Positions 3,001-9,000 of a stretch of DNA of 42,303 nucleotides are shown piece after piece. The stretch is from a virus. Its lineage: Duplodnaviria > Heunggongvirae > Uroviricota > Caudoviricetes. The stretch's first letter is position 1. Each line of letters begins with the position of its first letter. Position numbers: made by a program. The stretch lies in the IMG/VR virus record IMGVR_UViG_2851976983_000005; one strand, 5' to 3'.

Positions 3001-6000
3001 TACAGAGTCGAACAAATGGTATTTATGTGTATCTGCGGCATGTGATTTGGTTCCTACTCAGGGTAACGACCCTCACCATGTAAGATTAAGTCCGCACAGG
3101 CTCATTAAAGTTCTGGAGCTTTTTAACGCCAGTCAGAGTAAAGCATTGCCATTTGCTGAACATTCGAAATATATATATGTAATGCATAAAAATCAAAGAA
3201 AATATCTCTCTATTTTCGAAGGGGATAAAACGCTTCCTGTTGTTGATTATATGGTGGTGTTGAATCATGGAACAACAGTTGATGGCGAAGAAAAAAATAT
3301 TATTTCTGCCGTGTTTTTAAGTAATATGGATGGCAACGTGCAAAATGTTCCTGTCCGACTCAAACTTAAATCTCAACTGAGAACTGGTTATGCAGAAAGA
3401 TATCAGGCTATAGCGTCTCAGTATAGCTCAAGGATTGGTGTGGATTATGTATCAATGATGCTACCATAATTATTATATTTTAGGCGTGGTGATTTTTTTT
3501 CGCCATGCCTATTTTATATTTATCATCACAATGATGTTGTTTATTTTTGTTTAAGTCTTCTAAGCTTCATGCATTCTAATGAGAATAATAATAGAGTTGT
3601 GCTGTATATAAAGCCAGAGTTAGTTAATAACTTTAAATTTAATGCTTCAGGATTTTCACTGAGAAAGTGAAAGGCATAAACTAAGTATACAGCTAAAGTA
3701 GCCGTTCCAATTGTTGGTCCAATATCGCCTTGATCATGAGGTTCAAGGTTTACATTGAACTTGAAGATTAGCCATTCAAATCCCCAAGTAAAAAAAACAA
3801 CTAATATCATGGCTGCGAATAATTTCGCGATGTTATCTGCTGATGGATTCATCAGAACAGATTGTTTCTGAAAAAATTCACAAAGTGAGAGTCCGAAAAA
3901 AATAAAAAAAAGTGGTCTGGAACTAAATTTTTCAAAAACTTTGAATAGGGTTTCCATTTTCTTTACCTTCAGGATTATATTAGCTATTCTGATACTTAGG
4001 CTACCAGAGCATTTGATCTTTGAGCTTGAACGTAATCACTCCACCATTGCATCAAACTCTGTCGCTCTATCAGATATTCTGCACGATTGTATGCTGCGAT
4101 AATTTCATCTTTTTTCGAGTGGGCAAGCGCTGCCTCAAGAACTTCAGCTCTGAATTTACCAGACTCCTCTGCCGCTGTTCGTGCAATAGAACGCATACCG
4201 TGAGCTACAAGCTCGCCTCCGAACCCCATTCGGATGATAGCTGCGTTGGCTGTTTGTTCATGCATATGATTAAGAGGCGCTTTTATGCTGGGGAAAACCC
4301 ATTCTCTATGCCCACTTATTGATTTCATTAATTCAAGGATGCGCAAAGCTTCTTTACTCAAAGGAACTTTGTGAAGCTTTTTCATTTTCATGAAATCAGC
4401 AGGAATGTTCCAAATGCTGTTGGTTGTATCAATATCAGACCACCTTGCGCGAACGGCTTCACCCGGACGAACCCATGTCAACAATTGCCATTCAATTAGC
4501 ATACGTGTTTCCAACCGGATTGACGCATTCGTCAAAGATTCCATAAACCTTGGCAATTCGCTTGGGGGAAGGGCAGGCATATTTTGCTTTTTTGGTTTAC
4601 TGAATCTTTGACCAAGGTTGTCAGCCGGGTTGAACTCAATAAGTTCTTCAGTAGCTGCCCACCGGAAGATTTCATTCAGACGTGAAATGATACGGCGTAG
4701 AGTTTCCAATACGCCTCGTTGCTCAATAGGATCAAGGTGTTGTTTTAAGAGCTTAGGTCGGATCTCATTGATAGGGACATTACCCAGACCGGGAAAGACA
4801 TTTCTCTCTAAGCTGCGCCAGATGTCTGCTGCATGGTCTTGTGAGATACCTGATGTCTTTACCTTCTCATCTAACCATTTCCGCGCTACGGCTTGGAGAG
4901 TGTGCTCAGTAGCACTCTTTAATGCCTTCGCCTTATCGTTGTTATGGATTTGGGGATCAACACCATTTGCCAGAAAGGAGAGATATTCATCACGTAAGGC
5001 TCTGGCTCTTGCAAGGGTAAGGTGAGGATATGTCCCAAGGCTCATTTTGGTTCTTTTCTTGCTCACTGGTACTGCATACCTGAAATACCAATTTTTCTTG
5101 CCTCCTTTCGCCAAAGGAGCGATTCGTAGAATCAGACCATCACCGTCAAACAAGTTGATTTCTTTATCGGCTGGCTTGGTGCTTTTGATTTCAGTGTCAG
5201 TGAGCTTCTTAGCGATTTTTGCCATTTTGGGACCCTCGGTTTTTGGACCCTTCTTAGTGGGTCCCATTCAGGGTGCCATAACTCGTAGTTCTCAGCAATT
5301 CTCACTGGACGACAATAGACGTAAAAAAGCCCGCAGAGCTTGTGCTGTGTGGGCTTAGTAGACTTCATTGAACTTCAAACAACTAAAAAGTGGTGGAGCT
5401 GGCGGGAGTTGAACCCGCGTCCGAAATTCCTACATACCATTTTCACTATAGCAAAAACATTAACTTGCGTTTAAAATCAGCAAGTTAGTATTATCTTGTG
5501 TTTGTCCGTTTTACTCATTTTTAATGCTCTGTCGCCAATCTGTCGCCATTGTAGGTCAACGAAGGTTGAGCCTTCCCTTTGTTTGTTACAATTTCATCAA
5601 AGATAGCTGGATTATTATCTTTCAGTAATCTTGCTAGTATAATGATTTGCCCAGACGAGCCATCATCCTTGAATGAAAGGAAATTATCGGTAATATCAAG
5701 AATATCAATGGTAAATTTGAAGTAGGTTTCAATTGTATCGCCAAGTTCAATGCTGGACATGAAGTTAGTAATCATTTCATATCCATCAAAGTATAAAGTT
5801 GCATGTTCATTTAACTCCATGGGAGTTAGGCAAAGCATTCGATTAAGTTCGGATAAGTGTTTTTCTATTGAATGAAGAGATTGCATTTGACGGATTAAAA
5901 CTTCGTCAAACTGAGAGCCACGATTAGATGAATTTATCTTCTCTAGGTTTTTTAGTATATCAACCCAGTGATTATTTACTTCACGTATGTATTCTTTATC

Positions 6001-9000
6001 TGTATTTTTAGGCCGTCCCTTCTCTGGTGAGCTATTTATGAAAATATATCTATATAGATGTATTGGGTAGTTAATTTTATAACTTATCTCTTTAGTACCA
6101 TAATGACGTTCGCGTTTAATGGTTTTGTTAGGTAAATTGGTGAAATAATCAGTAACGAACTTTAGATGGCTATAGTAGCTATCAGATAGATTCTTTTGCT
6201 TGGTTTCCTCAATTTGTCGGTTTGTTTGAACTGTGCGGTGTATGTTTGCTACGACAGCAACAAATGGTATGGACAAAGAAAGTAAGGCGATAGGAAGCTT
6301 GCTAATTGCAATGAAATTATTAAAGCCCTCACTATCAAATTGAGGGGAATGTCCAAGCCAGGAAAATATACCAAAGTATATCGCTGAAAATACAGGAATC
6401 CTAAGTGATTGTTTAAATAAGTATTGACTTGTTAATGGCCTTTCATCCATGTTAAAGCCTTTTTTTGATACGCATAGATATAATTCAAGGCATATATATA
6501 TAAAATATATTATGATAAGTAAGTACGATATCCATGGGTATTGTTGGATATAGTTATTAACAAGCACTTTCTAATTTTCTCCATCCAAGGTTAGCAAGAG
6601 GATTTTTGGTTACAGCATCTTCCAGATGGTCGGGAGCGAAGTGGGCGTAAATCATTGTCATTTTTATATCGACATGGCCCAGAATATCGCGCAGCACCAG
6701 TATGTTTCCGCCATTCATCATAAAGTGACTTGCAAATGTATGTCGTAATACGTGTGTGCATTGCCCTTCTGGTAGCTCGATACCAGCTCGTTTAACCGCA
6801 CGTTCAAAAGCTTTCCTACAAGGTGTAAATAATTTTCCCCTATTCTTAGGCAGTTCTTCATATAAATCCTTTGAAATAGGCACTGTTCGGTTTTTCTTTC
6901 CTTTAGTCTTGGTATAAGTGATACGGTATTTTGATACCTGATGACTCTGTAAGTTTTCGGCTTCGCTCCAGCGTGCGCCGGTGGCCAAGCATATTTTTGC
7001 AATCATCAGCAGACTGGGGCTTTGAGAATCAGCACAGGCATCCAGCAGACGTTTAATTTCTTCCGGGGTCAGGAACGCCAATTCACCCTCAGCAATTTTA
7101 AATGTTGGCAGCCCAGCAAGCGGGTTGGGGGCTGACCAGTGGCCCAGCTTTTTCAGTGTACCAAAAACAGATGATAGGTTGCGCTGTTCAAGATTTACCG
7201 TGCGGGGCTTAACGGGCGACATAAGCGTGCCATCTTCATTTCGTACTTCACCTTTTAACCGTGCTTCGCGGTATTTCGTAAACTCACCAGCTGTCAGTTC
7301 TGAGGCGATGGGATCGCCTAGACCATTACAGATAATTCTAAGTTTCGCCATGAGGCGCTTGGGGTCTGCGAGTGTTTGACCATACAGGGAATACCACAGC
7401 TCAATTAATTCTGATAGATGTCGCCGATCTTCCTTTTCCCCTAGCCATGGTTTTTTGTTCACTTCTTCCATTGTGAAGCTTTCAAACGCAATGGCTTCGC
7501 CTTTGGTAGCAAATTGCTTACGCACGCGCTTACCATTGCGTCCATTGGGATAGCACTCACACAACCATTTTCCGTTCGGCTGTTTTCTGATGGTCATAAG
7601 TTAGAGGTTCTTGATTACTTTGACTGCACGTCCTACGACTTCCACATCATCTACAGAACATTCAAATGAAGTGTCATCTTGGTTAACTACTATTTTGTTT
7701 CCGGGTATGCGCGCAATTTTGACGATGCTTTTAACTCCGTCCATATCGACTAACCAGAAGCCATTACTGACTTGTTTAACAGACGTATCCACTACAAAGC
7801 TATCATTAGCTGTTTTAACAAATAAAGCGTTGGATGAGTCACCATCGAGCAGGCTGCTATCAAGAAGAATTTCATCACTTGGCTGCAGTTCGCCGTTCTT
7901 CAGTTCAACACGTTTGATGCTAGGAGCAACGATCTTAGAAAGTGGTCTTACAGTGACGGGAGGTTCATTTTTGAGATTTATTTCTTCGTTCTCACACGCA
8001 TACATATCTCCTTGACCAGTAGCCAGCCATAGAAGGGAAGCTCCTGTTTCAAGGGCACATTGGATTACCCATTCGGCAGGAAAGCTATCCCTTAAGTATC
8101 TGTTAGCCATAGTGCTTTTTGATACTTCCAGATGTTCGCAGAGCTGCTGTCGTGAGCTGAAGTTGTAAGCCTTAATAAGCCTATTAATCGCATCGCGCCC
8201 ACCACTATCATTCCCCGCCTTGATTAAACTCATAATCAAACCTCTTGACGTATATAAAAAGTGATCTTAATATCCATTCATGGTTTGAAAAGCAAAACCA
8301 AACCACATAAAACAAGATAAAACGAAACCAAACTAAGAGATACTGCACTATGAGTACTGATATTTCAATTCGTGTACCAAAAGAGATGGCAACGCCTGCT
8401 GAGTTCGCGGAATGGGAAGGTATCTCCCGCGGCTCCGTGTATCAAAAAATTCACCATGGTCAGCTTGCTAAATACATGGTCAAGAAAGAAAAAAACAAAG
8501 GCCGCGTAAGCCTGCGTTATTTAATGTACAAAACAGATCAGGTCCGTGAATCCCTCGGTCATTCCAACTTCCGCGTCATTGTTGGTAAGTAAGTTCAATT
8601 ATGAGAACTTTCTAAGGGGGTAGCATGTTTGATTATAAGATTTCCAAACACCCGCATTTTGATGAAGCCTGTAGAGCTTTTGCACTTCGTCATAATATGG
8701 CGAAGCTGGCAGAACGTGCAGGAATGAATGTCCAGACTCTGCGAAACAAACTCAACCCAGATCAACCGCATCAGCTCAATGCGCCAGAAATCTGGCTGCT
8801 TACCGATCTGACTGAAGATTCAACGCTGATAGATGGTTTTCTGGCACAGATTCACTGCCTGCCATGTGTACCGATTAATGAGGTAGCAAAAGAGAAACTG
8901 CCGCATTACGTCATGAGTGCAACCGCAGAGATCGGGCGTATTGCTGCAGGTGCGGTATCTGGCAATGTAAAAACCAGTGCAGGTCGTCGTGATGCTATCA

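Follow-up and report, generated by a model that had tools for sequence, protein, structure and literature searches.

What does the gene do that lies between the integrase gene (int) and the attachment (att) site of the Escherichia coli prophage described here? The prophage, which is of the 186/P2-like type, is contained in a stretch of 42,303 nucleotides that was analyzed over its whole length (the window; IMG/VR record IMGVR_UViG_2851976983_000005, Caudoviricetes). The gene in question is a 348-codon open reading frame (ORF348; 5521-6567, minus strand). A preliminary description of the window, made from the sequence alone, had treated it as horizontally acquired, AT-rich membrane-protein cargo, expressed from the lysogenic transcript of the repressor gene cI and int, as expected for superinfection-exclusion or abortive-infection factors. 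In the following, ORF348 is found to be an intact gene, its comparison with related prophages supports its status as swappable cargo, and a tentative anti-phage function is weighed against the alternatives. Identifiers beginning with L are our own names for the loci that were compared.

The gene and its start codon

The reality of ORF348 was judged from an ORF listing, a chance test, a PHROG match, the ratio of nonsynonymous to synonymous substitution rates (dN/dS), and AlphaFold modeling. Its stop-free run covers 349 codons; in 2000 shuffles of positions 5436-6600, the longest run averaged 72 codons and never exceeded 163, and the probability of 348 open codons at this base composition is ~4e-12. 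The dN/dS of ORF348 was 0.19 against an allele that is 88% identical at the protein level and 0.16 against one that is 70% identical. By region, the ratio was 0.02-0.03 for residues 40-146, 0.20-0.22 for the C-terminal domain, and 0.47-0.65 for the first transmembrane helix (TM1). Among 74 related loci, nearly all carry the gene intact and with the same architecture. Among the exceptions (L018, L032, and L069), one locus has ~1.5 kb inserted between int and its truncated copy, and the copies of two are shortened at the N terminus. ORF348 is real, intact, and under purifying selection; a degraded remnant was looked for in the relatives and was not what they carry.

The int gene (6557-7597, minus strand; Pfam Int_N and Phage_integrase) encodes a tyrosine integrase of the P2/186 type. 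Its stop codon occupies 6557-6559, and the overlap of its 3' end with the start of ORF348 on the same strand is therefore exactly 11 nt, as had been described; the stop codon of ORF348 is 85 nt short of a 45-nt att repeat (described as within ~90 bp). The strong AT-richness noted previously was also borne out. The G+C content (GC) of ORF348 is 33.8% (31% at third codon positions), compared to 45.8% for int, 42.7% for cI, and 51.7% for the prophage. The cargo is more AT-rich than int in all 74 related loci (median GC 32.4% for the cargo and 46.8% for int), and family alleles range from 27.5% to 35.7%.

The 348-residue form begins with a GTG codon (6565-6567). The RefSeq protein (WP_231539624.1, 309 aa) begins instead at an internal ATG (M40; 6448-6450, minus strand), which removes the first membrane helix. 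A TM1-like segment is present N-terminal of position 40 in 82 of 87 diverse family members. In most of the 74 related loci, the start of the longest ORF falls in the range from 44 nt inside int to 11 nt past its stop codon, with an ATGA-type 4-nt overlap being the commonest arrangement, and the dN/dS of TM1 is below 1. For these reasons, the family evidence favors the long GTG form, with M40 probably being internal. M40 was also considered as a conserved alternative (dual) start and was rejected, as position 40 is mostly leucine across the family (L39/M31/I10/F7). The start annotation is inconsistent among database records; others, e.g. from E. fergusonii, carry the 348-aa form.

A swappable cassette between int and att

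The limits of the acquired DNA were located from blastn break-points against three sister prophages (L002, L003, and L004). Proceeding from int, DNA similarity stops at ~6592-6599, inside the 3' end of int, resumes at ~5548-5551, and continues through att. The swappable cassette is thus ~1 kb in length (~1040 bp; 5552-6591) and comprises the last ~12 codons of int and the cargo gene minus its last ~10 codons. The latter codons, which specify the terminus ...GDRLATEH, lie in a segment of conserved phage DNA (5436-5551) that separates the cassette from the att core. This segment, presumed to be an attP arm, is 85-91% identical to its counterpart in prophages whose cargo is unrelated.

In many E. 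coli prophages located in ssrA (strain C21 and others; L002:3222-3890), the gene is replaced by one for an unrelated 222-aa protein that is hydrophobic at both ends. The L002 protein ends in ...GGTLAAES and reads into the same conserved att-flanking DNA; the position of the last ~10 codons in that DNA explains the similar tail on unrelated cargo. The tail ...LA[A/T]E[H/S] was accordingly rejected as a functional tag, because the ORF simply reads ~30 nt into conserved attP-flanking DNA.

The ORF348 allele occurs in just 13 of 213 E. coli genomes with a related int. A census of the int-att interval covered 80 IMG/VR proviruses (L101-L180) with int at least 89% identical, of which 72 were informative. 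The slot 3' of int held a member of the ORF348 family in 19 of the 72, another ORF (from about five unrelated families) in 36, and no ORF in 17; the att core is 123 nt after int in 11 of the ORF-less proviruses. Because the slot is without an ORF in close relatives, the gene is dispensable for the phage. A second set of 80 loci was retrieved through the family itself, and the order cI, int, family member was found in ~75 of them. Where int was at least 88% identical, the conserved core of the cargo had a median identity of 49% and the C-terminal domain one of 24%. From the cassette break-points, the rarity of the allele, and the polymorphic slot, the view of ORF348 as horizontally acquired, swappable cargo of the int-att slot is well supported.

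The commonest other occupant (~22 of the 72 loci; e.g. L111:4025-5212 and L114:4024-5250) is a family of 395-418 aa with an N-terminal '...PPF...DI.SDF..C' motif, and a further one is a family of 506-514 aa (e.g. L104:4027-5547). Neither family had a PADLOC match. A 330-aa occupant (L164) matches the restriction endonuclease (REase) domain of Argonaute-associated proteins (E 2.7e-30).

Protein architecture and predicted topology

Kyte-Doolittle analysis gave hydrophobic windows at residues 12-34, 54-72, and 85-110. AlphaFold, supplied with the family alignment, returned a model with a mean predicted local distance difference test (pLDDT) score of 81.6, in which TM1 comprises residues 12-34 and TM2 residues 49-69. 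A short loop helix (residues 79-88) is followed by a single helix of ~54 residues (90-143) that combines TM3 with a stalk of ~35 residues. The two methods thus agree on the three N-terminal hydrophobic helices, followed by a soluble domain, of the preliminary description. That domain (residues ~148-340) has an alpha/beta fold with helices and two beta-hairpins; modeled by itself, it had a pLDDT of 85.7 and a predicted template-modeling (pTM) score of 0.86.

The three parts of the protein differ in conservation. TM1 (residues 13-34 for 6466-6531, minus strand) is hydrophobic family-wide and poorly conserved in sequence. The conserved core (residues 40-146; 6130-6450, minus strand) includes a putative cytoplasmic loop, TM2, the periplasmic-loop helix, TM3, and the polar juxtamembrane stalk. 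The variable C-terminal domain (residues 147-348; 5524-6129, minus strand), a helical bundle with the two beta-hairpins, is predicted to be cytoplasmic. In two family alignments (A1 and A2), the invariant or near-invariant residues are L45, Q48, and F51 in the loop before TM2; P58, W70, G81, F85, P92, and L96 in the TM2-loop-TM3 region; and H110, R111, T112, Q114, T115, Q118, I119, K125, N126, D129, H134, and K136 at the start of the stalk. The core motif after TM3 reads N-I-H-R-T-x-Q-T-x-x-Q-I...K-N-x-x-D...H-x-K.

Family-wide counts of K+R versus D+E were 3.1 vs 1.7 for loop 1, 1.9 vs 2.2 for loop 2, and 5.3 vs 4.2 for the region after TM3. By these charge counts, loop 2 is outside, with loop 1 and the region after TM3 inside. 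The predicted topology is therefore that of an inner-membrane protein with three transmembrane helices in an N-out/C-in orientation and the variable domain in the cytoplasm. A HEPN-like R-x4-H motif was sought by eye in the C-terminal domain; the single instance (R-EVNN-H) is not conserved in A1 and was rejected.

Size and spread of the family

ORF348 matches PHROG 17460 over its full length (E 1e-156 over residues 4-332). This entry represents the family in its existing clustering of phage proteins; it has no function or description, and so names the family and explains nothing. A word-seeded search returned just 29 relatives, all of them 'hypothetical'. When 1.84 billion representatives (clusters at 50% identity) were searched with a full HMMER profile, 962 matched at E <=1e-3 and 149 at E <=1e-30. 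Most of the 962 are 320-380 aa long and match over most of their length. Named sources among the Enterobacterales are Escherichia, Citrobacter, Enterobacter, Klebsiella, Salmonella, Cronobacter, Providencia, Xenorhabdus, and Edwardsiella; Pseudomonas is also represented, and more distant relatives occur in Vibrio.

The earlier statement that no domain can be recognized was upheld. Pfam and NCBIfam gave nothing for ORF348 or ten distant members, and nothing consistent across 87 members; neither database has a model for the family, despite its 962 or more cluster representatives. Weak DctQ and KwaA matches look like effects of transmembrane composition. No fold match for ORF348 was found in the PDB, and a sequence-profile search of the PDB returned designed helical proteins only. 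The family is large, without functional annotation, and structurally unmatched in the PDB, and is a well-defined candidate for testing.

Family members at other loci

Two of the positions occupied by the family are known sites of defense genes. The int-att interval is reported to be a minor defense hotspot of P2, with 3% of its systems (PMC13586616), and the hotspot between gpA and the portal gene has been shown experimentally to hold anti-phage systems (PMC9122126, PMC9519451). Four different family members were found between gpA and ogr/portal in P2-like prophages of Providencia. One prophage has two tandem paralogs in the gpA-portal hotspot, and two others have one copy there and a second directly after int; two copies within one phage were 41% identical in the core. 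In a tectivirus-like temperate element of Vibrio, the gene directly 3' of a LexA-type repressor gene, at the genome end, encodes a relative that aligned over the core with an hhalign probability of 98% (E 1e-13).

No partner gene recurred across the contexts examined (cI-int, gpA-ogr/portal, and repressor loci), and the family protein therefore probably acts alone. Three Providencia prophages (L093:11542-12387, L099:11501-12067, and L100:11508-12383) have an extra ORF (188-291 aa) between cI and int; that of L093 is unrelated to the cargo family (hhalign probability 0.2%).

Expression in the lysogen

The gene for the 186-type CI repressor (7601-8239, minus strand; Pfam Phage_CI_repr and Phage_CI_C) presumably heads an operon consisting of cI, int, and the cargo. 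These three genes are on the same strand, int and ORF348 overlap, and a terminator scan detected no terminator-like site between cI and ORF348; co-transcription is plausible for these reasons. In phage 186, cI and int are transcribed from the lysogenic promoter pL. The papers on phage 186 confirm only that pR and pL lie face to face. There was no excess of promoter-like sites (4 found vs 8.0 expected). Judged from gene order, ORF348 is likely expressed from the cI-int transcript in lysogens, and the overlap with int suggests translational coupling.

In the prophage state, the first terminator-like site 3' of ORF348 is a hairpin 180-190 nt downstream (5327-5341, minus strand). It is the original terminator of ssrA, which has stayed with the displaced 45-nt fragment of that gene. 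The rebuilt ssrA is terminated by phage DNA, i.e. by a hairpin directly beyond the att core that has a 12-bp stem (41208-41235, minus strand). In the circular or tandem form, the cI-int-cargo transcript would terminate at this phage-supplied hairpin.

Proposed function and alternatives

The function that we propose, tentatively, is abortive infection: ORF348 would act as a single-protein anti-phage factor expressed in the lysogen. It is an accessory (moron) gene in a polymorphic int-attP slot, most likely co-transcribed and translationally coupled with cI and int in the lysogen. TM1 would serve as a loosely conserved anchor; TM2, the loop helix, TM3, and the polar stalk would form a strongly conserved membrane module. 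The C-terminal domain of ~200 aa, predicted to be cytoplasmic, is replaced or diverges quickly between alleles, and would recognize a component of the infecting phage. The membrane module, which is probably oligomeric, would then compromise the inner membrane, and the infection would stop. Expression, topology, oligomerization, the anti-phage role, and the mechanism of membrane damage are all things that we infer; the protein may be anti-phage on grounds of context and architecture, not of homology. A sensor-effector for abortive infection fits best because the membrane module is constrained, the cytoplasmic domain is replaced, the gene is placed in hotspots and repressor operons, and multiple diversified copies occur. 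The known defense gene bSEFIR in the other hotspot of this prophage, and the lack of a recurrent partner gene, also count in its favor.

A broader form of this proposal is put forward with more reserve. The family as a whole could constitute a widespread and hitherto unrecognized single-gene anti-phage system with a new fold, in which a three-TM, polar-stalk effector is fused to a hypervariable cytoplasmic sensor. It would be distributed over at least two unrelated lineages of temperate phages (P2/186-like tailed phages and tectivirus-like Vibrio elements) in lysogenic operons and hotspots, sometimes in 2-3 diversified copies that widen the range of phages recognized. If the function is indeed anti-phage, the family adds a compact single-gene membrane system with a conserved effector, a swappable sensor, and many natural alleles, and it is suited to the mapping of sensor recognition by domain swaps and phage escape mutants. 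The little-studied int-att slot of P2-like phages would also be a productive place for new systems. Cargo of this general kind, AT-rich and defense-like, has been described at this slot before; the family itself is uncharacterized.

Several observations weigh against an anti-phage function. ORF348 and 87 members showed no significant or consistent homology in PADLOC to a validated defense protein; it is by hotspot association and architecture that the role in exclusion or abortive infection suggested in the preliminary description is supported. Of 10 other slot occupants sampled, one REase-like protein matched PADLOC and the rest did not. The C-terminal domain, for which a sensor role is proposed, is under purifying and not positive selection in close alleles (omega ~0.2). 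Homology to RexA and RexB of phage lambda was rejected (hhalign probability 0.1% and 0.2%, respectively), and the sporadic matches of family members to PADLOC '2TM effector' models (see below) may reflect transmembrane composition. Literature searches on the accessions, the PHROG identifier, and descriptive phrases located no paper specific to the family and no experiment on any member. Hotspots also hold non-defense morons. A gene of 34% GC may be silenced by H-NS in E. coli.

A non-defense accessory role, which we consider doubtful, would make ORF348 a prophage-stabilizing, toxin-like element, a factor in counter-defense or inter-phage competition during the lytic cycle, or a modulator of the host membrane. 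The dispensability of the gene, with the slot empty in close relatives, is compatible with such a role, as are the lack of defense homology in PADLOC and a slot that mostly holds uncharacterized genes (one of the ten others sampled matching PADLOC). The gene has also stayed intact in a prophage with an insertion sequence (IS) in its replication gene, consistent with host benefit or with selfish retention. However, the family is found repeatedly in the gpA-portal hotspot, whose tested cargo is mostly anti-phage (PMC9122126, PMC9519451, PMC13586616); in two unrelated virus lineages it belongs to repressor operons, which are expressed in lysogens; and no antitoxin-like partner gene is present at the loci examined.

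Superinfection exclusion (Sie), in which the membrane protein would block entry of the incoming genome without killing the cell, in the manner of Sie, Imm, or Sim, is the main rival of the abortive-infection proposal and is unlikely. ORF348 is, as this function would have it, a predicted inner-membrane protein encoded in the lysogenic operon of a prophage, and the hotspot context is shared with the abortive-infection proposal. Few parts of the protein are as well conserved as the periplasmic loop that joins TM2 to TM3 (W70, G72, H73, P75, G81, F82, F85, and K90), which indicates that an envelope-facing part is functionally important. The fast-changing part, however, is the predicted cytoplasmic domain of ~200 aa, which is the reverse of what would be expected for specificity toward an ejection apparatus. 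Most classical Sie proteins are much smaller, and Pfam, PADLOC, and PHROG searches gave no homology to any Sie family.

That ORF348 is a silent or decaying remnant in a defective prophage is highly improbable: the prophage is probably replication-defective (IS100kyp in gpA), an AT-rich gene may be silenced, and the L018, L032, and L069 copies are interrupted, truncated, or shortened, but the open frame far exceeds the shuffle maximum, the dN/dS ratios are low overall and lowest in the core, the gene is intact in nearly all related loci of a family with 962 representatives, and the structure model is confident.

Comparison with known systems

The closest functional analog of the proposed abortive-infection factor may be the non-homologous RexAB system of phage lambda. 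Like rexA and rexB, ORF348 is in the presumed lysogenic operon of a repressor (cI-int-cargo, or repressor-cargo in Vibrio), and it shares with them a combination of membrane and cytoplasmic parts and a proposed abortive-infection logic. It differs in being one polypeptide rather than two, with three TM helices compared to the four of RexB.

The closest hint from sequence comes from the 2TM effectors of cyclic-oligonucleotide-based anti-phage signaling systems (CBASS); it may be a lead, not a membership. ORF348 weakly matches the PADLOC model PDLC00691 (E 2e-4, residues 55-163), one of the CBASS-type '2TM effector' models. Such matches were sporadic, involving 4 of 87 members and three models (PDLC00691, PDLC00682, and 2TM_IV) with at most two members per model. 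We take the PADLOC 'Effector 2TM' models to be SLATT-like; Pfam SLATT/DUF4231 gave no match at E <=0.05 in the 87 members. As in CBASS and Pycsar 2TM effectors, a TM hairpin is followed by a conserved helix predicted to be cytoplasmic. Unlike them, ORF348 carries its own large variable domain rather than answering a nucleotide signal, and no CD-NTase, SMODS, cyclase, or TIR signal generator was nearby in the contexts examined, where the neighbors are cI and int, gpA and ogr, or a repressor gene.

With the cargo of P2 hotspots (old, tin, fun, and the systems of Rousset 2022, Vassallo 2022, and the 2026 NAR survey), ORF348 shares lineage and loci, AT-richness, swappability, and rarity per allele; it differs in having no match to the PADLOC models of these systems. 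PD-T7-4, which 'often overlaps an integrase gene' (Vassallo et al.), was considered as the identity of ORF348 or its slot-mates and was rejected, as none of them had a PADLOC PD-T7-4 match. A long helix running from the membrane into a cytoplasmic domain is also found in CorA-type channels. The Foldseek match to Thermotoga maritima CorA was insignificant (probability 0.57, E 2.1, TM-score 0.22), and ORF348 is unlike CorA in its reversed domain order and in having no GMN motif.

The prophage and its surroundings

The window is part of the E. coli chromosome. Its bases 5300-7700 match strain 503440 with 100% identity, and this block is present in 13 of 5426 complete genomes. The prophage (35.9 kb) lies between two copies of the end of ssrA, having been inserted in the 3' end of that gene. 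Intact ssrA, which encodes the tmRNA, was located with ARAGORN at 41244-41606 (minus strand). Its 3' end (41244-41288) is the distal copy of the att repeat, an exact 45-nt direct repeat; the int-proximal copy (5391-5435) is the displaced ssrA 3' end.

An Apl/Rha-like gene and cII are on the strand opposite cI and int. Further prophage genes are gpA (replication), portal, terminase, and tail genes, gpD, and ogr. The gpA gene (11276-13555) is marked as incomplete in RefSeq and is cut by an IS21-family element, IS100kyp (13565-15366, minus strand; istB 13565-14347, istA 14344-15366). Because of this interruption, the prophage is probably unable to replicate; its cargo genes are nonetheless intact. 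Its classical gpA-portal hotspot holds a bSEFIR anti-phage defense gene (16539-17972, plus strand; PADLOC E 1e-102, Pfam SEFIR/TIR_2).

The other attP flank also carries a small gene. Between ogr (40348-40611) and the att core is a 160-aa ORF (40638-41120, minus strand) without a Pfam match and with a weak PADLOC match to the candidate PDC-S48 (E 1.7e-7, residues 82-153). It is followed by its own terminator-like hairpin (40636-40619) and is frameshifted in one of the prophage copies of strain 503440. That strain has two tandem copies ~36 kb apart, both with IS100 in gpA (L181, NZ_CP025881.1 2464000-2480000, compared to L001). The tandem junction restores the attP order of cargo gene, att, and 160-aa ORF. 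The window contains one prophage copy, followed by ssrA and smpB.

A CP4-57-like island (1-5267) with a P4-type integrase gene (3996-5267, minus strand) adjoins the displaced ssrA fragment on its left. The island also includes an ORF for a hydrophobic protein of 138 aa (3541-3957, minus strand) as well as two overlapping genes on the plus strand (1-1719 and 1703-3469), which as a pair carry HEF_HK/HATPase_c and Response_reg_2 domains. The island cargo to the left of the P4-type integrase gene has a GC of ~28-39%, and the integrase gene itself one of 45%.

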